Source: a virus (lineage: Duplodnaviria; Caudoviricetes). Taken from it: 50,029 nt of DNA. The notes under the pieces were generated by a model. It did not search any database, was not told where the DNA came from, and saw nothing but the letters and a program-made list of their open reading frames with translations. The translations under genes were made by a program, and so were the position numbers. Positions 10,218 to 42,930 of this stretch are shown in pieces; positions within the stretch are counted from its first letter, which is position 1, and each line of letters starts with the position of its first letter. The DNA is taken from positions 1 through 50,029 of the IMG/VR virus record IMGVR_UViG_3300016471_000329, one strand, 5' to 3'.

Positions 10218-11147
10218 CTATGGCGCGGAGGATGCAACGTTCGTTCTATTTGCCATAAAAAGACTTCTTCCTTCTTCAGATGCCCATGATTGTTTCATTT
10301 GTACTGACTTTGACAAAGCACGCTCCAACGCTCCGCAAGATGGGCATCCACGTCCCTTGCGAAACTGAGCAGCGTATTGGGAAAAAACACCGTGAATTGG
10401 ACACATACATCCTTCAATCCTGATTAAGGCACCTTGATATACGGCGTTCGTAAAATCGTACTTATCCAAAACCTCTGACGGAAACTTGTTCTTTACAGCG
10501 TCAAAGTCCGACGGATGTTGTTCCCTAGCGTTTTTACGCATGACCTCACGAATCTTTGCCAGCCCCTCTTCGGTATAGGTTCTGGGTTTTTTAGGCACAT
10601 CCTTTTGAGCTCTTGATATCTTCGCCTTTGTCTCATCCGTTCTTATTTTTCCAAGCCAAAAACGCTGAGGGTTTTGCTTTTTCTTGGCTCGAATCCGTTC
10701 CTTAGTTTCCTCGCTATGAGTCTTTCCGACGCGGGGGTGATTAAAGTAGCTTTGAGCATAGTGGGCTTTAAGCGCCTCTGCGATTTGACGTCTTTGTTCT
10801 TGGGTAACGATTCGGCCAAAGTTTGGGTGATTTTCTGGGGCAACGTTTCTCCAGGGGGCACCTGATCGTCTTCCTGCGTTGTAACAATAAGCTTTCCCGA
10901 AATGTTCTTCCAACCACCTGTTCTCAGCTTCCTGAAGGGAGTTTCCCTCTGGAACCGTTTCTACGACCTTAAAAAGAAATTTCTCTTCCCCGTATTTGTT
11001 CCATGCCGCTTGCAAGTGAGCACAATGGTGAGTGCCCCTTCTAAGCTTGTTTCGATGTGTTCGAAACCGTTCTCTGTGGTTGTTTGTGCTGCCTACATAA
11101 AACTTATCATTTACAGCGTTAACAATTTTATAGATGACTTGATTCAT
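10218..11147 (-). CDS. free-standing GIY-YIG homing endonuclease with NUMOD3-like repeats and C-terminal Cys cluster
   Basis: VIYKIVN...FYVGS...RF..H...HLQAAWNKYG catalytic domain; GKTHSEETKERI and GKIRTDETKAKIS repeats; CPIHG...GCPSC; start set at MNQVIY because the longer GTG start lies inside the promoter. Confidence 0.9.
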   Translation of the reverse strand: MNQVIYKIVNAVNDKFYVGSTNNHRERFRTHRNKLRRGTHHCAHLQAAWNKYGEEKFLFKVVETVPEGNSLQEAENRWLEEHFGKAYCYNAGRRSGAPWRNVAPENHPNFGRIVTQEQRRQIAEALKAHYAQSYFNHPRVGKTHSEETKERIRAKKKQNPQRFWLGKIRTDETKAKISRAQKDVPKKPRTYTEEGLAKIREVMRKNAREQHPSDFDAVKNKFPSEVLDKYDFTNAVYQGALIRIEGCMCPIHGVFSQYAAQFRKGRGCPSCGALERALSKSVQMKQSWASEEGRSLFMANRTNVASSAP

Positions 11148-11177
11148 TTGATGTCCGGTATTAAGTAAGGTATGTCT

Positions 11178-11206
11178 AATGTACACTCCGTGTAGTCAAT
11201 AGTCAA
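11178..11206 (-). promoter_or_regulatory. sigma70-like promoter for the GIY-YIG gene
   Basis: TTGACT-17 bp-TACATT on the minus strand. Confidence 0.65.
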
Positions 11207-11261: not shown

Positions 11262-12170
11262 TTATGCAGCTCCAGGGCTTCCGAAGATGCCTCTAGGATC
11301 AGAGTATCCGAACGAGTACCGCTCACGAGCCTTATAGCGGACGTTTCCGGTACTAAAGTCGCCCTCAAAACCAGTGCGCATAGCCACGCGCTCAAACATC
11401 TTCATGCCGTTAGGTGCATCCGTTTTGATGAAGTATGCATCTGGGTCGGTCAGGAAGTGGTTGACCACATAGCCTTGGGGGATCATGCCCATGTTCTTGA
11501 TGGCATTGATGTCGTTGTCTGCCGTTCCAACACGCAGCGTGGACTTCATGATGCGATCAGCGGTAAACATGAGCTCTTTCGGAATGATCAGCTTCAGACC
11601 CTGAACAGCGATCTTCAAGCCACGTTCATCGGTGAACGCTGCGATGTCGATCAAGGACTGCTCAAGCGAAGTTTCCGAAAGGTCAGCAGGGGTAGCCAGC
11701 TCGTTAGCAAGATCAGGACCGCCAAGGGTCGGGTGATCCAGCGCGCACAAGGGCTTGCCGTCGCCACCGAGTGAGGTAGTGAAAGCACCGTTGAGCACCG
11801 CAGCAGCTTTGATCTGCTTGGTTTGCGCCATGGAACGAGCCAAAGCCTTGGTATAACGCGCTGCAAGACGGTCGTAGAGGTTGTCCTCAACGGCTTCTTC
11901 AGTCAGCGAAAATGCCAAAGCGATGGTTTCGTGGGTGTAGCGAGCGGTGTAAACCTCTTGCGCGTTGTCGTATGCGACGCCAGCGCCTTCAGTCTTGACC
12001 GGAGCCTCACCGAACCCGGATTCCATGACTTCCTCTTCAAACGCACGATCAGAAGACTCGACAGCATAAATCTGCAAGTGTTCATTCTCGTAGTTCTTAT
12101 ACTCCAGGCCAAAAAGAGCGTTGAGTCCAGGCTCAAGTTCTTTAACCAGTTGGGCACGTGAAATTGCCAT
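11262..12170 (-). CDS. major capsid protein
   Basis: 302 aa; MAISRAQLVKELEPGLNALFG...ARYTHETIALAFSLTEEA.EDNLY...GNVRYKARERYSFG.SDPRG (Mu gpT-like HK97-fold family); downstream of scaffold, followed by terminator. Confidence 0.9.
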   Translation of the reverse strand: MAISRAQLVKELEPGLNALFGLEYKNYENEHLQIYAVESSDRAFEEEVMESGFGEAPVKTEGAGVAYDNAQEVYTARYTHETIALAFSLTEEAVEDNLYDRLAARYTKALARSMAQTKQIKAAAVLNGAFTTSLGGDGKPLCALDHPTLGGPDLANELATPADLSETSLEQSLIDIAAFTDERGLKIAVQGLKLIIPKELMFTADRIMKSTLRVGTADNDINAIKNMGMIPQGYVVNHFLTDPDAYFIKTDAPNGMKMFERVAMRTGFEGDFSTGNVRYKARERYSFGYSDPRGIFGSPGAA

Positions 12171-13282: not shown

Positions 13283-14200
13283 TTATTCCTTCACGTACTT
13301 TGCGTATTCCTCTAACGGAACACCTAGTCTTTTGGCAATTGCGACCTGACTCGGGGTCAGTTTCACAGTGCGGCGTGCGCTTTGGTTCACACCCGAAGAG
13401 CGTGACGCAGGAGCAACCGTTTGCACGGGACGGTTGGCTGAACGGTTCATACTATCAGAACGAAACTTATGTGGGAAGGCGTCTTTGATGCGTCGATCCA
13501 ACTCTTCGTAGTAATCATCGCCTCGCGGATCAAAACCTTCTTGCGATACCAGCTGAATATGAATGCCTCGGACCGCTGCCGTCATTGCAACGTCCTTGCC
13601 AAACCACTCATTCTTCTCGGCCCATTCTTCAGCACGCGGATCGGGCTGCGGCAGTTGCGGACGAGCGGCTTGTTGTTGCTGATAAGCCTGCTGTTGTTGG
13701 GCCTGTGCTGCGCGCTGGTATTCATACGCCTCACGCTGCGCGGCTTCTTCTTGCAAGCGACGCTGATCAACAAGGATAGCGGTCAAACGCTCATGAGCTT
13801 CCGTTTCGGTGTCAATGTCACCTTCCTCACGGGCCTTTTTCATGATCTGCTTGAGCGCCAAAACTTGGGTATCAATACGGCCCTTGGCCTCGCCCATGCG
13901 CTGACTGTCGGCATGCACATAACGCTGCTCGGCATCGCGAATGCGAGCCTGCATCTCTTGCGCCACGCGAATCGCCTCTTGCTCACGACGCTCGGTTTCG
14001 CGCAAACGTGCGGTTAGCTTATCAATACGCTTTTGAACCTTGTCGCTGTACTGATCAAGGTCCTGACTAGTGGTCTGGTGTGTCTCGACCATCGGGGCTT
14101 GTGGCTTTTCAAGTTGCTCGGCACTACCATCTTCGTTAATCGAGACGGTTGCAGGCTCTTCGTCTTCGCCTAGCTTAAATTCCAGTTGTTCATTGGCCAT
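13283..14200 (-). CDS. putative capsid scaffolding protein
   Basis: acidic N-terminus, long coiled coil (VQKRIDKLT), WAEKNEWFG, C-terminal LTPSQVAIAKRLGVPLEEYAK; start at MANEQ. Confidence 0.7.
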   Translation of the reverse strand: MANEQLEFKLGEDEEPATVSINEDGSAEQLEKPQAPMVETHQTTSQDLDQYSDKVQKRIDKLTARLRETERREQEAIRVAQEMQARIRDAEQRYVHADSQRMGEAKGRIDTQVLALKQIMKKAREEGDIDTETEAHERLTAILVDQRRLQEEAAQREAYEYQRAAQAQQQQAYQQQQAARPQLPQPDPRAEEWAEKNEWFGKDVAMTAAVRGIHIQLVSQEGFDPRGDDYYEELDRRIKDAFPHKFRSDSMNRSANRPVQTVAPASRSSGVNQSARRTVKLTPSQVAIAKRLGVPLEEYAKYVKE

Positions 14201-14210
14201 AGGATGTTCC

Positions 14211-14663
14211 TTACATGTGGACGATATCTTGCGGGTCATTGATCACGCCGAGCACTTCGTCATCGTTGATGAAACGAATCTCGCCGCCGTCAATCGGGAT
14301 GCGCGCACCTGCGTAACGACCAAAGATGATCCAATCACCTTCCTTGCACCACGGGCCGTCAGGAAACTTCTCCTGGTCGTAGTAGGCAAGCGGTCCTAAA
14401 TGCAGCACGTAGCCCACGGTGGTAGCCACCTGGGTGCGCTTTTGGGTTTCCTCAGACAGAGCAATGCCGCCTTTGGTTTTCTGTACGCCGCGATAAGGCA
14501 GGATAGCGATACGCCATCCGGTTGGTCGTGGCAAACGACTCAGGACGCTGCCTTCGATCAACTGCGGATCAAAGTTGCCTTCCTTGTCATACGCATCGTC
14601 CAACGCGGGCTTGCGCTGGGCTTCTTGCTCCTGCCACTTCTGTTCAAGTGCCGTCAATGCCAT
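14211..14663 (-). CDS. groES: GroES-like co-chaperonin
   Basis: PTGWRIAILP...KTKGGIAL mobile loop, GPLAY, WCKEGDWIIFGRYAG, RFINDDEVLG. Confidence 0.9.
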   Translation of the reverse strand: MALTALEQKWQEQEAQRKPALDDAYDKEGNFDPQLIEGSVLSRLPRPTGWRIAILPYRGVQKTKGGIALSEETQKRTQVATTVGYVLHLGPLAYYDQEKFPDGPWCKEGDWIIFGRYAGARIPIDGGEIRFINDDEVLGVINDPQDIVHM

Positions 14664-20537: not shown

Positions 20538-23030
20538 TCAGTAGTACTCAAATTCCAATTGGGTTGATGGCTCATCGGCTTCGTCATCGTCCAACGCCAC
20601 AAAGTTCCCGGCCCTGAACCGGCTGATGGCCTGCACCGTGCTATCGACCAAGTCATCATTATCGCCCTTGGGAAACGCTGCGCACTCCTCAATCAACTCC
20701 TCTGCCCACTTCGTTTGCGGTGCCCAGACCATCCCCGACTCAAACACGGGTGCAATAGCATTAGCCCTAGCAATCTTATCCTGATTCTTCTTCCTGCCTC
20801 CCGGCGAATAGGTCGTCACAGGAATCCCCACGCGCCGAAGCTCCTGTTGCAAACTCGTTCCCGTGGCCTTGGCCTCGATCAACACATTATCGGGTCGCCA
20901 GTGATCGTACTGGGCGCGTGCCACACGCTTTAGCTCCGGGAAGTCCCAACGGCCTTTTTTAACATCGAGGAGAATAATGGCAGGTCCGTCGTCCGAGCTG
21001 GGACGGAATACACCCCAGGTGGTGATGGCTGAAAAATCAGCTGTCTCCTTCTTGCTGTATGCAGTGTCATAACTCTGGATAACATATTCAACGTCGGGCG
21101 TGTAGTCATGTTCCCATATCCTCCACCAGTCACGCTTTAAAATCGCCCCCTCATCATTGGTGGGCTGCTGTTGATACATCGACTGCCACTTCTGCACCGA
21201 CAACGTCGCCCGGACCTTTTGCAACTCCTCAAGGCTCCAGTAGCTTGGCCAAAGGGGCTTTTCATCCTCGGTATACTCATTCAATATCGCCGGAAACTCA
21301 ATCACTTCCCACTGATCCGACTTCGGTTCCACCTGCGACTTAATCAACCGCGCCGTCAGATCCTTCATCCCCCAGCGCGTCATCACAACCACCACCGCCC
21401 CTCCGGGCTGCAAACGTGACCGAGGCCCCGAGGTGTACCACTCCCAGGCATTATCCAAAGCAAGCTCACTCAAAGCATCCTGCTCTGAGTGCGGATCGTC
21501 AATAATCAAAAGATCCGCACCGCGCCCTGTCATCGCACCACCCACACCCACTGCGTAATACTCCCCGCCACCATTCGTGTCCCACCGACCCGCAGCCTTT
21601 GAATCAGCCTTTAGGCTCACCGCCGGGAACAAGGCCTTGTAGTTGTCCTGATCCATCAGGTTACGAACCTTTCTGCCAAAGCGCACCGCTAACTCGCCAT
21701 TGTGCGTGGCTTGAATGATCTTGGACCTTGGCTCACGGCCCATGGCAAAGGCAGGCAAGAGGTAGGACGCAAACTCACTTTTCGTGTTATGCGTACACAG
21801 ATACCCGTCCCCCGCTAAAAACAACCCGTCCCCTCGATCAACCTTGATGCATTGTGTATCGCCTGTCTCATGAAGCCTTTCTACGGTAATGTACCTACCA
21901 AAGGTCCGCTCGCCCATCAAAAGACGTTCACGCTTTTTAGGCAACAAACAACAATCACTGTGGTAAAACGACACACGCCACGTTAGGCCATACGACTTGT
22001 CACCAATCTTGGCCTCTGACTCAAGCACCGAGGCCTTTGTGCCAAGGCTTCGAATTAACTGCGCAACATCCTGCGCCATGCGCCAATCGCTTTGAGCAAA
22101 AGAACACTGTCCCTTCTTGCTTACACACCCGTCCGTATCCATTAACCCACGCAACAAATCAAGACGTTGTGTCACCGATCCAAGCATATAAACCTCTGGG
22201 ATATGCTTATTGCCAAGAACGCCCAGCTCTTTAAGCTTTACTTGAAGGTCAAGCGTGCCGAAGGTTTTCCGTGTCGCTTGATCCGTGGTTCTTGTTCCAC
22301 GGCGCTCAAACTCCTGGCGCAAAAACACCCTGTTCTTATCATCCGCCGTAATAATCCCTGAGTTTTTCGAACCATCCCCAAGCCATACACCCAGTACATA
22401 CGGGTCAACCAAAAGGTCTTTTTCCTCGTACTGAACAGGTTTCACATCTGGCAGTCTTGGCAGTCGAACGTCTATCGCTCGCTTACCCTTCAAAAACTCT
22501 GTCTTACCACCACGCGTCTTTCTCAAGACCTCACCATGCTGCCTTCGCCACAACTCCTCCGTGGTGTAGTCATGATAAATCCTGTGCTTTCGATCAAGCC
22601 TCACGGTCCACAGATGCTCGCCATCCACAACTAACGATGCACCATCGTCGGACGTCACACGATAAAGCGTTCTGCCACGGAATACCTCTGATTTTCCAAT
22701 GACTTTGGCGGGCGAGCCATCGACCGAGAACACCGAATCACCGACCTGGAGCTCGGCCATGGTCTTCCACCCTTGTGTCGTCGGTATCTTCATACTAGTC
22801 ATTATAGCATGACGTGGAGGCATATTCACGATCAAACGCTTTAACTCGCCATTGATGATGCGGTCAAAGGCGTTGGCCATGCGACTGTGATGTGCGCTGA
22901 AGATCGCCTCCGGCCAAACATAACGAGCGAAGTCCAAGAACGACTGAGTGCTCTTTTCTTGAGCATCAAGGATCCTGAGCCTTAGCTCAAGGCGCAGTTT
23001 CTCGGCTTCAACGTCGGCGGGAAGGGTCAT
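20538..23030 (-). CDS. terL: terminase large subunit, intein-containing
   Basis: RLIVNMPPRH|TKS Walker A split by intein; LLIIDDPH Walker B; VMTRW; QSYDTAY and DDLVDS nuclease motifs; start at MTLPADV. Confidence 0.95.
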   Translation of the reverse strand: MTLPADVEAEKLRLELRLRILDAQEKSTQSFLDFARYVWPEAIFSAHHSRMANAFDRIINGELKRLIVNMPPRHAIMTSMKIPTTQGWKTMAELQVGDSVFSVDGSPAKVIGKSEVFRGRTLYRVTSDDGASLVVDGEHLWTVRLDRKHRIYHDYTTEELWRRQHGEVLRKTRGGKTEFLKGKRAIDVRLPRLPDVKPVQYEEKDLLVDPYVLGVWLGDGSKNSGIITADDKNRVFLRQEFERRGTRTTDQATRKTFGTLDLQVKLKELGVLGNKHIPEVYMLGSVTQRLDLLRGLMDTDGCVSKKGQCSFAQSDWRMAQDVAQLIRSLGTKASVLESEAKIGDKSYGLTWRVSFYHSDCCLLPKKRERLLMGERTFGRYITVERLHETGDTQCIKVDRGDGLFLAGDGYLCTHNTKSEFASYLLPAFAMGREPRSKIIQATHNGELAVRFGRKVRNLMDQDNYKALFPAVSLKADSKAAGRWDTNGGGEYYAVGVGGAMTGRGADLLIIDDPHSEQDALSELALDNAWEWYTSGPRSRLQPGGAVVVVMTRWGMKDLTARLIKSQVEPKSDQWEVIEFPAILNEYTEDEKPLWPSYWSLEELQKVRATLSVQKWQSMYQQQPTNDEGAILKRDWWRIWEHDYTPDVEYVIQSYDTAYSKKETADFSAITTWGVFRPSSDDGPAIILLDVKKGRWDFPELKRVARAQYDHWRPDNVLIEAKATGTSLQQELRRVGIPVTTYSPGGRKKNQDKIARANAIAPVFESGMVWAPQTKWAEELIEECAAFPKGDNDDLVDSTVQAISRFRAGNFVALDDDEADEPSTQLEFEYY
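21786..22808 (-). mobile_element. class 3 intein (341 aa) with LAGLIDADG homing endonuclease
   Basis: Ala1 (AIMTSMKIPT), block B HLW, block F TQCIKV, block G CTHN, +1 Thr; PYVLGVWLGDG and LLRGLMDTDG LAGLIDADG motifs. Confidence 0.9.
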
Positions 23031-23249
23031 TGGTTTTGAAATTTGCAAAAAATTTTCAGGGAAATCGTGTTCTAGAACAAGGGGGTGGGTTTCTGAAAAC
23101 GCGAAAAGTGTACTTATATCAGAAAACTGTTTTAGGCCCTAGTTGTTTTTGCGAAACCGGGCCAAGGTCGGCGTCCGCTGCGAGGGCCGGGGCGTTGTGC
23201 TAGATTCTAGAACCTAGAGCGCTCTAAAATCTACTAATCGCCGCCGGGA

Positions 23250-23410: not shown

Positions 23411-23490
23411 TTGCGATCATAAGAAAAACCTATAAAGGCCTGGGCGGTGATAGCCCCGATATATAGGGGCAAAGCAGGGCCATAAAATAC

Positions 23491-23509
23491 AAAGGGCCCC
23501 GAAGGGCCC
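23491..23509 (-). terminator. intrinsic terminator, copy 1
   Basis: GGGCCC-TTCG-GGGCCC-TTT on the minus strand (cUUCGg tetraloop). Confidence 0.8.
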
Positions 23510-23532
23510 GCTGGGAGTAAAGCTTTAAAGGG

Positions 23533-24305: not shown

Positions 24306-24382
24306 TTCAAAATCCCTTTCTGCTGTATAGGCTGGGCCCCTGCCCAGTGAGTCGTTAAAATAACAGAAAATTAAGAAAACAC

Positions 24383-24401
24383 AAAGGGCCCCGAAGGGCC
24401 C
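24383..24401 (-). terminator. intrinsic terminator, copy 2
   Basis: identical GGGCCC-TTCG-GGGCCC-TTT hairpin. Confidence 0.8.
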
Positions 24402-24431
24402 CCTGAAATGCTCCCAGGCTCAGGGCCTGGG

Positions 24432-25571: not shown

Positions 25572-25580
25572 AATTAAATT

Positions 25581-25600
25581 AAAAGGGCCCCGAAGGGCCC
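25581..25600 (-). terminator. intrinsic terminator, copy 3
   Basis: GGGCCC-TTCG-GGGCCC-TTTT. Confidence 0.8.
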
Positions 25601-25618
25601 CTGACTTGCTGCTTTTAA

Positions 25619-28119: not shown

Positions 28120-28500
28120 CAACCATTACGTTGACACCAATTCAGATTAGTAAGTGAACTTCTAGCGTTTTCATTTTTTTTTTTTTTTAAAATCAAGAAA
28201 GTATAGTAATATAACGTAATGTCTTGTAAGTCCTTGATTCTATTAACGAAATCCATCTCGTCCCTTAAAAACAACACTGTAATTCAACGTAATAGTAAAC
28301 TTTCAACGTAATAAGTGTATCTTACACTTATGTACATACTAATAGCAAATCCATTACCGTAATGAAAAAATAGACGTAATGTAGAACCCCAATAACGGCG
28401 GTACTTCTTACACCATTACGTCTATTACACTACTTTCTAAGTTTTGAAAAAAAAAAATTTCAAACACAGAAAGTTCATCTAATAGGCGCTCAGAAGTAAT
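28120..28500. other. AT-rich iteron region, candidate replication origin
   Basis: six ACGTAAT copies (28125r, 28214, 28287, 28306, 28374, 28415r), polyT/polyA arms forming an imperfect inverted repeat, IHF consensus at 28227-28239. Confidence 0.6.
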
Positions 28501-29330: not shown

Positions 29331-29524
29331 GTTCGTTTCTCCAATAGTAGTTTTTTGATATGCCCGGGGACCTTGGGCAGTGGTGCCCAAGCCTTGGCCC
29401 AATCGCCCCAAGTCCCGATTACGCAGGTGCCTCCTGGGTTCAATAGCAACAGCTTCACCCCCAGCGGTGGCGCTTGTTCCTGAGCCGTGCGCCATGAAGC
29501 TTCACCCGCGAGGTAGTCTTTCAT
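29327..29524 (-). CDS. hypothetical protein (DUF551-like)
   Basis: PPLGVKLLLLNPGG.CVIG.W...AWAPLPK. Confidence 0.6.
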   Translation of the reverse strand: MKDYLAGEASWRTAQEQAPPLGVKLLLLNPGGTCVIGTWGDWAKAWAPLPKVPGHIKKLLLEKRT

Positions 29525-29733
29525 ATCCTTGCTCGTATGACGTTGATTGCGTACGCGTAGTAATTGTGTGATTCGTTTCGCTCTTGCAATCGCTCAAGCA
29601 TGTCAATGATCTGCTTTTCTTTCTCAGCGGCGACAAGGGCAGCGAAACGTGTTACAGAACCTAATGGCTTTTCGTCAGATCCGTAAGCCAATCCAGCCTC
29701 CCGCGCCATGCGGATTATTTGTTCTCGGTTCAT
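29521..29733 (-). CDS. small accessory protein, M.REDIIRMAREAG family
   Basis: MNREQIIRMAREAGL...RFAALVAA. Confidence 0.65.
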   Translation of the reverse strand: MNREQIIRMAREAGLAYGSDEKPLGSVTRFAALVAAEKEKQIIDMLERLQERNESHNYYAYAINVIRARI

Positions 29734-30080
29734 GTATTTCCCCTTGCTCGGATTGCTTGCGCGGCCACCTTTGTAATGTTTGACGCATATTCAGGATGTA
29801 CAGCAAGCACATCACACACCTTCGCACACGCAGAACGCTCGTTTCTTATGCGCTCTTCAATCTGCCATTCAAGTTCTTCCAACAATTTTTCTATGCTGTC
29901 GCCATGACCGGTTGCGTAGCCGCGCTCGATCATCCAAGCGGCCAACTTCTCACGCTCGGCAACAGCAACAAGCTTGGCGAAGCGTTCAATGTCCACTAAG
30001 TTGCAAGTAAAGTCGTCACTCATGTCGTGTGGATCAAATCCCGCCTCTCGCGCCATTCGGATGATGTCTTCTCTATCCAT
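29730..30080 (-). CDS. small accessory protein, M.REDIIRMAREAG family
   Basis: MDREDIIRMAREAGF...ERFAKLVA.AERE...ERSACAKVC...AIRARG. Confidence 0.65.
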   Translation of the reverse strand: MDREDIIRMAREAGFDPHDMSDDFTCNLVDIERFAKLVAVAEREKLAAWMIERGYATGHGDSIEKLLEELEWQIEERIRNERSACAKVCDVLAVHPEYASNITKVAAQAIRARGNT

Positions 30081-31591: not shown

Positions 31592-32157
31592 AGCGTCCTG
31601 CCTTGCAGCCGCTCGGCCACGAGTGTTGAGTAGCCTGCGATATCAGCCCATGAGTCAACGTGATCGGCATTGCCGTTGATGATGCGAGCGATCTTATGAA
31701 AGATCATGTCAAGAGCTTCTGATTGATCGTCAGCAAGGCGCTTGTTCCTTGAGCCAAGCTCCCTGTAGAGCACGCTCTTAAACTCCTGCGCTGTCTTAGC
31801 AAGCGAGACAAAGGTGCCGTATTGCAGCGCACGTTCTTGTAAAAGCGTATTGACGCTTGGTGCCTGTACAGTCTTCTTGAACTCCAAGCCAAAGAGCGCA
31901 TTCAGTCCAGGTTCAAGTTCCTTAGCAAGTTGAGCGCGAGTGACCTTGGTCTTCTTAACCGCGTTTGTAGCTGCTTCGAGCGCGGACAATGGCACCGTGT
32001 AAACCTTGGTCTTGCGAGGACCGAGCTTGCGTCCTTTCAAGGGCGAAGGCTTTTTGCGAGGACCGAGCTTGCGTCCCTTAAGCGGTGAAACTTTTTTGGC
32101 AGGTGCCTCTGGTGCAACGTCCTGCTCAGTTTCTTTTTGTTTACGTTTCTTCCACAT
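31588..32157 (-). CDS. DUF6378-like protein with basic N-terminal repeats and an embedded copy of the capsid N-terminal peptide
   Basis: C-domain LLQER..QYG.F...ALDMI.HKIARI.NG...H.DSW.DIAGY; SPLKGRKLGPRK x2; TRAQLAKELEPGLNALFGLEFK; start MWKKRK after AGGAG SD. Confidence 0.75.
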   Translation of the reverse strand: MWKKRKQKETEQDVAPEAPAKKVSPLKGRKLGPRKKPSPLKGRKLGPRKTKVYTVPLSALEAATNAVKKTKVTRAQLAKELEPGLNALFGLEFKKTVQAPSVNTLLQERALQYGTFVSLAKTAQEFKSVLYRELGSRNKRLADDQSEALDMIFHKIARIINGNADHVDSWADIAGYSTLVAERLQGRTL

Positions 32158-32159
32158 GA

Positions 32160-32429
32160 TTACTCTCCTGTTGAAAATAGAGCTTTGTAAAAAGACCACT
32201 TGGCCTTGTAAAAAGGATCCTCACTCGGTGGGATCCAGGTCTCGCGTGGCTCACGCTTAATGTTGATTGCCAAGCCAACGCCGCGAAAACAGTACTCAAT
32301 CGCTTCGATAGGTTGGTTGTCGATGTCTACTGCGCCACGCAGATCAAAACGCGTAAGCGTCTTGGCAGCAGGCTGATTACGAAACCTTGCTAGGACATCT
32401 GAACCGGACTTCCATTGACGTTCTTCCAT
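32160..32429 (-). CDS. hypothetical protein
   Basis: AGGAG SD; DVLARFR...WIPPSEDP. Confidence 0.6.
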   Translation of the reverse strand: MEERQWKSGSDVLARFRNQPAAKTLTRFDLRGAVDIDNQPIEAIEYCFRGVGLAINIKREPRETWIPPSEDPFYKAKWSFYKALFSTGE

Positions 32430-32583
32430 CTTCTTTCTCCTGTATCAGTAAGGTGCTAACTCAACATCGCTGAGTTCATTTACTTTATCACGTCTTTTTT
32501 GTTTTTGTCGCCATTTGATGATTTTTTCTTGCTCTTCCTTAGTTCTGAACGGCCACTTCATTTGTTTAGGGCTAATGGGAAAG

Positions 32584-40745: not shown

Positions 40746-40780
40746 AGTGTACACTTCGATTTCAGGACATGCAAGTCCTG
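40746..40780 (-). promoter_or_regulatory. promoter of replication operon in divergent intergenic region
   Basis: TTGCAT-17 bp-TACACT; -10 lies in palindrome AGTGTACACT; CAGGAC/GTCCTG inverted repeat flanks the -35. Confidence 0.65.
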
Positions 40781-40792
40781 CAAGAAAGGAGA

Positions 40793-42250
40793 ATGATGGA
40801 AGAGCAATATTTAGCGAATTACCCGTATCGCAACAAACCCTTCGCACATCAGCAAGCGTACCTTGAGCGGTTCTGGCGCAAGCCTCTTGCAGCGCTCTTT
40901 GCTGACATGGGCACAGGCAAAAGTTATATGTTAATCAATAACTTAGCGATGCTCTATGACAATGGCGAAGTCAACGCTGCGGTGATCGTAGCGCCCAAGG
41001 GCGTCTACAGAAACTGGATCGATATAGAAATCCCAAAGCACATGCCAGCGCACGTGGTTTACCGCGCAGCACTGTGGACGCCTTCACCGCGCAAGGCTGA
41101 GAAGGCTGCACTAGATTCCATTTTTGAAGTCACTGAGGATTTAAAAATTCTCGTGATGAATGTTGAAGCGTTCTCAACGGATAAGGGCAAGCTCTTTGCG
41201 CAGCGCTTTGTCTTGTCGCACACGGTACTGATGGCGGTTGATGAAAGCACGACCATCAAAACGCATACCGCTGCAAGGACCAAGAACATTACAAAGGTTG
41301 GAAGACTTGCTCGCTTTCGCCGGATCATGACTGGATCGCCTGTGACCAAGACGCCGATGGATCTGTTCTCACAGTGCAATTTCCTGTCTGCCGATTGCCT
41401 GGGTACGGATAGTTTTTATGCGTTCCAATCGCGATTTGCCGTGGTAATCGAGCGCCGTGTTGCAACGCACGCTTTTAAGCAGGTCATTGGATATCAGCGG
41501 CTCTCTGAATTGCAAATGATCGTAAGCCGTTTTAGCTTCAGAGTCACCAAAGAAGAGTGCCTTGATTTGCCTGAGAAGCTTTTTGTGCGGCGCGACGTTG
41601 ATCTAACCGATGAGCAGGCGCTTGCCTATAATCAGATGAAAGCCATGGCGCTTGCACAGTTCTCCACAGGCACGGTGTCCACGGTCAACGCGCTCACGCA
41701 ACTGATGCGACTGCACCAGATCGTATGCGGTTTCGTGAAGCTTGATGATGGCACCATACAAGAGTTGCCTAACAACCGCATTCAAGAGCTGCTCAGTGTC
41801 ATCGAGGAGACGGGAGGCAAGGTCATCATTTGGGCGACCTATCGACACAACATCGAGGCCATTCATCTTGCACTGCAAAAAGCGTATGGCATGGATTCGG
41901 TAGGCGTTTATTACGGTGACACGAAGCTTGATGAGCGTCAGCGCGTGATTGAAAAGTTCCAGGATCCAAGCTCCCCGATGCGATTCTTTGTGGGCAACCC
42001 GCAGACAGGCGGCTACGGGATCACACTCACAGCGGCAAGTGTCGTTGTCTATTACAGCAACAGTTTTGATTTAGAAAAACGATTGCAGTCTGAGGATCGT
42101 GCTCACCGGATAGGTCAAGTCAACAAGGTGACTTACGTTGACTTGATATCACCCAAGACGATTGATGAGAAGATCGTCAAAGCCTTGCGCGATAAGATTG
42201 ATATTGCAACCCAAGTCCTTGGCGAGGAACTTAAACAATGGCTCATCTGA
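40793..42250 (+). CDS. SNF2-family (SF2) helicase/ATPase
   Basis: PFAHQ, DMGTGKS, VDES, MTGSP, LHQI, KVIIWA, GGYGITLT, QSEDRAHRIGQ; AAAGGAG SD before ATG 40793. Confidence 0.9.
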   Translation: MMEEQYLANYPYRNKPFAHQQAYLERFWRKPLAALFADMGTGKSYMLINNLAMLYDNGEVNAAVIVAPKGVYRNWIDIEIPKHMPAHVVYRAALWTPSPRKAEKAALDSIFEVTEDLKILVMNVEAFSTDKGKLFAQRFVLSHTVLMAVDESTTIKTHTAARTKNITKVGRLARFRRIMTGSPVTKTPMDLFSQCNFLSADCLGTDSFYAFQSRFAVVIERRVATHAFKQVIGYQRLSELQMIVSRFSFRVTKEECLDLPEKLFVRRDVDLTDEQALAYNQMKAMALAQFSTGTVSTVNALTQLMRLHQIVCGFVKLDDGTIQELPNNRIQELLSVIEETGGKVIIWATYRHNIEAIHLALQKAYGMDSVGVYYGDTKLDERQRVIEKFQDPSSPMRFFVGNPQTGGYGITLTAASVVVYYSNSFDLEKRLQSEDRAHRIGQVNKVTYVDLISPKTIDEKIVKALRDKIDIATQVLGEELKQWLI

Positions 42251-42930
42251 TTCCAATCCGCGAGAAGTATCACTATGAAAAGCTTGCTCGTCATGACGGC
42301 GAAGGCGGTCGCACATATGGTGATCAAAAGTTACCCAGCGTGACCCGCATTCTTGACTCCACTAGGGATAAAGCCAAGATTGACGAGTGGGTGCAGCGGG
42401 TTGGCAAAGAGGAGGCCGAGCGCATCAAGACGACCGCCGCCACGATCGGCACGCACATGCACAGCGTGATTGAGCACATGATTGCGGGGCAGGACTTGCC
42501 TGCTCCTTACACGCAGGAAGCGATCAAGGGCTACGAGATGGGCTATCGCCTGATCAGCGAGCAGTTTGCGCATATCACAGAAGTATGGGGCTCGGAGGTT
42601 ACTCTGTATATTCCGAATCGCTATGCAGGGACCACGGACATGGTGGGCCTGTATAAAGGGAAACCCGCGATCATCGACTTTAAGCAGTCCAATAAACCGA
42701 AGCGTCATGAGTGGATCACGGACTACTTCCACCAGTTGTCCGCCTACGCGCTAGCGCACGACTACCAGTTTGGCACCGAGATTGAGATGGGCGTGGTGAT
42801 GATGGCGATGCAATCCGGTGGTACGCAGGTATTCACGACCACCGGACGGGAGTTCAGCCAATACAAGACAGGCTGGCTTGAGCGGGTAGAGGGGTTCTAC
42901 CGTAACACTGCGTCAAAGGGGAAAAGCTGA
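42238..42930 (+). CDS. PD-(D/E)XK exonuclease (Cas4/lambda-exo-like)
   Basis: LPSVTRIL, GT.MH..IE, E...YAGTTD...IIDFKQ, QLSAYA. Confidence 0.85.
   Translation: MAHLIPIREKYHYEKLARHDGEGGRTYGDQKLPSVTRILDSTRDKAKIDEWVQRVGKEEAERIKTTAATIGTHMHSVIEHMIAGQDLPAPYTQEAIKGYEMGYRLISEQFAHITEVWGSEVTLYIPNRYAGTTDMVGLYKGKPAIIDFKQSNKPKRHEWITDYFHQLSAYALAHDYQFGTEIEMGVVMMAMQSGGTQVFTTTGREFSQYKTGWLERVEGFYRNTASKGKS

Follow-up and report, generated by a model that had tools for sequence, protein, structure and literature searches.

Copies of a predicted capsid N-arm helix recur, apparently as a mobile module, on unrelated proteins of HTVC023P-type phages

A 21-residue segment of a small accessory protein from an uncultured freshwater phage copies the N-terminal arm of the major capsid protein encoded in the same genome, and sequence comparisons indicate that this arm copy is a mobile module across HTVC023P-type phages. 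The copy is real, selected and recurrent, and we infer a function for it below. It was found in a linear virus contig of 50 kb that is about 82% complete; the window, as the term is used here, is this whole stretch of 50,029 nucleotides. Copy and capsid peptide (Table 1) are identical at 19 of 21 residues, the two changes being V/A and Y/F, and ten of the 19 identical residues use a different synonymous codon; translation thus reproduced the numbers given earlier in a sequence-only reading of this DNA. The other nine identical residues use the same codon. At the nucleotide level the copy matches its own capsid peptide at 50 of 63 positions, tblastn within the window recovers the pair with an E of about 1e-8, and the similarity reaches 24 residues (31873-31944 versus 12093-12164, 79%).

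Table 1. Positions of the arm copy, its carrier and the head genes discussed in the text.
Feature	Position	Strand	Description
Carrier ORF, 189 aa	31588..32157	-	Basic low-complexity N-terminus, capsid N-arm copy, DUF6378
Two Lys/Arg-rich SPLKGRKLGPRK repeats	32053-32088, 32011-32046	-	1-3 copies among homologues
Capsid N-arm helix copy	31876..31938	-	Carrier residues 74-94; helix H74-89 in low-confidence model
DUF6378 domain (PF19905)	31612..31848	-	Pfam E 3.3e-8; all-helical in low-confidence model
Source peptide, capsid residues 5-25	12096..12158	-	N-arm helix H5-26
Major capsid protein, 302 aa, HK97 fold	11262..12170	-	PF25209, phrog_371; model pLDDT 82.6
Putative scaffolding protein	13283..14239	-	Between GroES and capsid; same order in DSL-LC04, HTVC023P
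Phage GroES co-chaperonin	14211..14663	-	Family match

The earlier reading had also held that the copy is not an assembly echo, and had named absence of the peptide from homologues as an outcome that would speak against it. A contig from another study spans 31739-32445, including both copy junctions, with 3 differences (contigs of 4 of the 24 listed runs were compared), and the peptide is present in 112 of the 120 listed carrier homologues, 8 being without it. The copy is therefore not an assembly artefact, and the earlier reading stood on both points. Contigs of two RNA libraries cover the peptide as well, which by itself is not proof of transcription.

The PolA of this phage is 74.4% identical to that of DSL-LC04, 49.5% to that of HTVC023P and 44.4% to that of HTVC027P. 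HTVC023P-type phages are delimited, in the accessible part of PMC9599517, by a PolA at least 45% similar to cultured representatives, and GroES is counted there among their core genes. With this PolA, and with GroES, helicases, a terminase and a related capsid present, the phage belongs by its gene content to the HTVC023P type. Moreover, the gene order from GroES to the capsid is that of DSL-LC04 and HTVC023P.

A Foldseek search with the capsid model led to HK97-fold capsids (E 1e-11), and the copied stretch corresponds to the predicted first helix of this fold (residues 5-26). Across 35 aligned capsids R5, E11, L12, P14-G21 and Y24 are invariant. No match was found among solved structures searched by sequence with the capsid and the peptide. 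The ORF between the GroES and capsid genes is, from its position and a weak atlas lead, a putative scaffold and a candidate partner of the arm; it has a conserved helix-turn-helix-like C-terminal end (about 13286-13372) and no Pfam or NCBIfam match, and the atlas match is a lead only (0.87; 11-14% of its members have PF09306). The gene immediately downstream of the capsid encodes a GIY-YIG/NUMOD3 homing endonuclease (10218-11186, minus strand), unlike in DSL-LC04, where none is annotated at this place. In addition, six capsid genes from other loci (L524, L529, L530, L534, L540 and L543) are broken at the same place just upstream of their TEEA motif, a pattern that points to an intron or a programmed shift and away from a sequencing error.

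Several other features of the window were observed. The large terminase subunit (20538-23048, minus strand) contains, at about residues 283-353, a LAGLIDADG/Hom_end region that is likely an intein. Three near-identical GC-rich hairpins with an A-run, at 23484-23513, 24376-24412 and 25573-25610, are likely minus-strand intrinsic terminators. An AT-rich inverted repeat in a non-coding gap (28177-28221 and 28414-28457, 82% over 45 nt) is a possible origin or regulatory region. Two adjacent small paralogues (29521-29733 and 29730-30080, minus strand) have in common an N-terminal IIRMAREAG motif, with similar starts in L390. Finally, an SNF2-type helicase and an exonuclease (40769-42930, plus strand) are inverted relative to nearly all other genes of the window.

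The carrier most likely starts at the ATG at 32157, which lies 7 nt downstream of an AGGAG (32165-32169) and gives a protein of 189 rather than 203 residues; a promoter scan remained at chance level. Its SPLKGRKLGPRK repeats may bind DNA. The C-terminal DUF6378 domain scores 34.1 bits, above the Pfam gathering threshold of 27.1, and most DUF6378 proteins match the carrier over this domain only. Homologues at E<=1e-3 numbered 150, of which 120 were listed. The AlphaFold model of the carrier has a pLDDT of 51.5, and a Foldseek search with it gave no match at E<=0.001; matches of the domain in the atlas, with a best score of 0.87 and a weak DUF1599 match at 0.76, are no more than leads. The PHROG label "phosphofructokinase" was not trusted, and a VAPEAPAK-like match between the carrier N-terminus and the primase (E about 0.1) was taken as a low-complexity chance match. 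No function of DUF6378 was found described in the open-access literature. The arm copy was gained by at least two separate DUF6378 lineages, the window family and that of L113.

The earlier reading had proposed listing non-capsid matches to the peptide, and this search widened the picture considerably. IMG/VR was scanned with patterns that excluded a start codon at the capsid's position, in scans that overlap one another. Non-capsid ORFs made up 34 of 45 matches in the filtered scan, 34 of 46 motif matches with a looser pattern and, after removal of one truncated capsid, 17 of 120 under a weak filter. Pooling gave 43 distinct non-capsid ORFs that fall into 15 unrelated carrier groups when the peptide is masked, and one further carrier type was found in the genome G042. 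The groups include the second DUF6378 lineage, a DUF3310 protein and a winged-HTH family; others, as judged by eye, are HTH-like proteins with hydrophobic tails, Lys-rich proteins and near stand-alone peptides of 54-67 residues. The term capsid mimic, used in the sequence-only reading for a motif of one protein, is apt. The feature extends beyond that one gene and is a mobile module on many unrelated carriers.

The carriers are mostly basic or HTH-like. Their net charge per residue has a median of +0.075, against +0.011 for 22 neighbouring small ORFs of the window (p 0.002, in a post hoc comparison with one genome as background). Across 15 carriers the relative position of the peptide runs from 0.16 to 0.79, usually internal or C-terminal. 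At two loci, two copies occur in neighbouring paralogues. Neighbouring HTH-like paralogues were observed in L122 (392-481 and 655-744), L332 and L357, each paralogue ending in an arm copy. In three members of the second carrier family described below that are without the peptide (L587-L589), KRGRP tails, which we take to be AT-hook-like, stand in place of the arm copy and the Lys-rich tail. The single-locus N-terminal fusions L085 and L141 could be chimeras; the carrier families represented by several alleles cannot.

The control was TEEAxEDNLY, a motif inside the capsid that is as conserved as the arm and occurs in about 4100 stretches. Sampled without a filter, 120 of 120 stretches lay in capsids; under a comparable filter the 27 matches comprised 25 capsids or frameshifted capsids, one 22-codon frame and one contig end, and no fusion protein. 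The contrast with the arm is qualitative, resting as it does on one control motif and on two filters whose pass rates may differ. A profile search of 50% representatives gave 497 matches; among the best 150, 78 match the capsid downstream and P0121, P0125 and P0225 look like genuine carriers. The remaining 72 seem for the most part to be capsid starts that are truncated or chimeric, and these were not counted as carriers. A host origin of the peptide was rejected: of the 117 motif ORFs found in contigs of prokaryote genomes 116 are capsids, the remaining one (L599) looks like a chance match, and no cellular protein with the arm motif was found among them.

The copies are under purifying selection. 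The sequence-only reading had argued for selection from the synonymous differences between the copy and its own capsid gene; these are not decisive, since import from a sibling phage would look alike, and it is the codon-level comparison among copies, which that reading had suggested as a check, that carries the claim. In the window family, with loci chosen by DUF6378 motifs (20 distinct DNA sequences), the peptide has undergone at least 28 synonymous and 15 non-synonymous minimal changes, a ratio of 0.16 versus 0.15 for the domain; the pooled pairwise ratio is 0.25 for the peptide and 0.15 for the domain. A variant of the peptide, AIKPG, has 10 synonymous to 6 non-synonymous changes (p 5e-4), where, as for all our selection tests, the p-value is indicative only, because the counts are tree-free minima with changes treated as independent and the linker recombines freely against the domain. 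This variant was not found among 63 distinct fetched capsids and the window's own. Re-import from capsid genes therefore cannot explain all of the conservation, and exact mimicry is unnecessary, since a variant that departs from every fetched capsid is still conserved.

Members of a second carrier family were retrieved with the N-terminal domain as the only criterion, the peptide playing no part. From 22 loci, 3 were dropped as unrelated and 1 as cut off; in the 18 kept, the peptide is complete in 13, partial in 1 and absent from 4. The 12 distinct copies differ by 20 synonymous and 6 non-synonymous changes over 17 codons, a ratio of 0.12. Gain and loss of the copy are seen among close alleles. 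Linker types are scattered over the tree of the DUF6378 domain, so that the order of gains and losses is not recoverable from it.

Six of 29 records searched held both a capsid and a copy, which with the window and G042 makes eight genomes, representing about six carrier types. In 8/8 the copy is of the same subtype (E or L at capsid position 13) as the capsid of its own genome, a match that could also be expected from descent alone. The window copy is nearest to its own capsid among seven compared, with 19 residues and 50 nt identical versus 16-18 residues and 41-48 of 63 nt for the capsid genes of other genomes. A second copy was found in 0/5 cultured relatives. Among 34 records chosen regardless of the copy, many of them incomplete, 24 had an arm match and one of these 24 a second copy. 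The module is accessory and dispensable, being absent from 8/120 homologues, 4/18 members of the second family and 5/5 cultured relatives.

Our preferred reading, to which we give a probability of about 0.35, is that the copy would act as a loading tag, docking on the scaffold and carrying its carriers to the assembling capsid. The copied helix would bind the C-terminal end of the putative scaffold, as N-arm helices do in solved procapsids, and once docked it would bring the mostly basic carrier into or onto the prohead; we infer, in other words, scaffold binding by the copy and packaging of the carrier. The peptide is predicted to form a single amphipathic helix with a hydrophobic face that every variant retains: L8, L12, L16, L19 and F20 lie on one face, and the predicted hydrophobic moment is similar in the capsid, the copy and the AIKPG variant. 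The reading draws on phage 80alpha, where the C-terminal helix of the scaffold packs against N-arm helix 1 (PMC5644958, available portion), on the candidate scaffold with its conserved C-terminus and on basic carriers that recall the T4 internal proteins. The bias for the arm over the internal motif, the match to the own subtype and the recurrence on unrelated carriers also support it. Against it stand the carrier neighbourhoods that were inspected, which are mostly replication or small variable genes and not the head module, the usually internal position of the peptide and, by eye, two carrier groups with a hydrophobic, membrane-like stretch at their end, as well as some proteins of 54-67 residues that have little cargo, which fit poorly. 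No maturation protease able to release a tag was identified among the scanned ORFs of this record, which is about 82% complete and has several ORFs without a family match. A more open-ended version, held just as tentatively, is that the arm-helix segment may be repeatedly grafted onto accessory proteins as a capsid-addressing element that hijacks the scaffold site and either loads the virion or jams rivals. If so, new internal or injected proteins would evolve by a single recombination step.

The gene location, the hydrophobic or cargo-less carriers, the internal position and the missing protease are better accommodated by two other explanations, each of which we consider rather unlikely. The first is an assembly competitor acting in trans, in which the helix would fill the arm-binding site of the scaffold or of a neighbouring subunit without being packaged and the carrier would be a mere vehicle. 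Its effect, doubtful to the same degree, would be to delay the phage's own assembly or to spoil that of co-infecting relatives. The near stand-alone forms of 54-67 residues, the mutually unrelated carriers and the location among early-type genes would all suit such a competitor, and the satellite proteins CpmB and Rcm interfere, from the scaffold side, at the scaffold-capsid interface (PMC5644958 and PMC12409344, available portions). The copy, however, matches its own capsid subtype, so that a competitor would hit the phage's own assembly too, and the bias towards basic or HTH-like carriers would be left unexplained.

The second, a decoy that would bind a host defence sensor recognising the invariant arm and block its activation, has about the same low standing as the competitor. 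Its patchy presence (1/24 records, 0/5 isolates) among variable small genes would agree with this, such a distribution being typical of counter-defence genes; this capsid arm, however, is not known to be recognised by any sensor. Thoeris and CapRel are triggered by capsids (PMC12578639 and PMC13728456, as far as accessible), and DSAD1 competes with the trigger of DSR2 for its binding site and thereby blocks DSR2 (PMC11263360, accessible text). The Thoeris escape sites, however, lie in the P-loop and E-loop and not in the N-arm, according to the same part of PMC12578639, and a screen reviewed in the accessible text of PMC13728456 found oligomerisation to be common to triggering capsids. An exact copy of a trigger would, moreover, more simply activate a sensor than block it.

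Less likely than the loading tag, the competitor and the decoy are the two remaining alternatives. A generic stable amphipathic helix, captured and then kept in floppy linkers for dimerisation, for membrane binding or as a spacer, without a capsid-related partner, is the less improbable of them. It would suit the AIKPG variant, which retains the hydrophobic pattern only, the relaxed position 22 of other carriers (T, A or K instead of L or M) and one allele that lacks the peptide and has in its place a helix of weak similarity. Most members of the second family, however, keep 17 of 17 arm residues, including those at the surface, across 20 synonymous changes, and the internal capsid motif, conserved to the same degree, is not reused. 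Neutral repeated capture of the 5' end of the capsid gene, with a low dN/dS inherited through re-import of capsid alleles, is quite improbable: cassettes are frequently gained, lost and shuffled and the G042 copy, which retains the capsid start and 7 identical codons and hence is a young capture, would be of this kind, but the AIKPG variant has its synonymous excess while occurring in no fetched capsid, partial or decayed copies are rare (P0109, L008, L259 and L586), and the flanking linkers vary far more than the peptide.

The arm copy is akin to known assembly-interface tags and mimics. Encapsulin cargo-loading peptides, for example, also tag varied cargo with a short sequence that docks on a shell of the HK97 fold; they belong to cellular compartments and are not known to be copied from the arm of that shell. 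In T4 diverse basic proteins of low conservation are loaded by means of a short tag that has an affinity for the core (PMC9026906, accessible part). As described there, the CTS of IPI, IPII and IPIII is likewise a short peptide common to diverse basic accessory proteins, with a proposed link to the scaffold core, and is an N-terminal propeptide of 10-19 residues cut off by the prohead protease. The peptide reported here is, unlike the CTS, a copy of the capsid N-arm with a length of 21-24 residues and a mostly internal or C-terminal position (residues 74-94 of 189 in the window carrier, and thus not the N-terminal place of the T4 type), and its packaging is only proposed. CpmB and Rcm of SaPI resemble it as mimics at a scaffold-capsid interface involving the N-arm helix; in the available portions of PMC5644958 and PMC12409344 they are satellite-encoded mimics of the scaffold side that alter capsid size, whereas the arm copy reproduces the capsid side and is encoded by a phage that has a head module of its own, and an effect on assembly is only proposed. 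DSAD1, acting on DSR2, is similar in being a phage accessory protein at the binding site of a structural-protein trigger; the accessible text of PMC11263360 does not present it, however, as copying the sequence of the tail tube.

We found a further parallel within T4 itself. Residues 2-38 of gp61.1 (NP_049649.1) match gp23 57-93 with 46% identity (E 6e-9), and the copied stretch spans the start of the mature capsid protein; the gene (L559 1967-2131, minus strand) also matches capsid genes in other T4-like phages. As in the window, a small gene among replication genes, here beside the primase, copies the N-terminal part of its own capsid. The capsid family and the sequence are different, and gp61.1 is a single conserved and uncharacterised gene, not a multi-carrier cassette. 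The principle of copying the capsid thus recurs in another family. In the open-access literature we found no account of accessory genes with copies of a capsid N-arm; the orthogroup tables in the supplement of PMC9599517 may list these carriers.

Since the arm copy is accessory and its partner only a candidate, it is a strong lead and not a mechanism. The loading of internal proteins in phages without a T4-type targeting sequence is poorly known, and a 21-residue self-mimic grafted at least 15 times onto unrelated proteins is a concrete and cheap test case. If it does act as a tag or as an inhibitor, it would provide a portable loading tag or a peptide inhibitor of assembly. Uncharacterised genes such as T4 61.1 may be explained as well, and the copies would indicate a functional surface for the unsolved capsid family of these abundant marine and freshwater phages.
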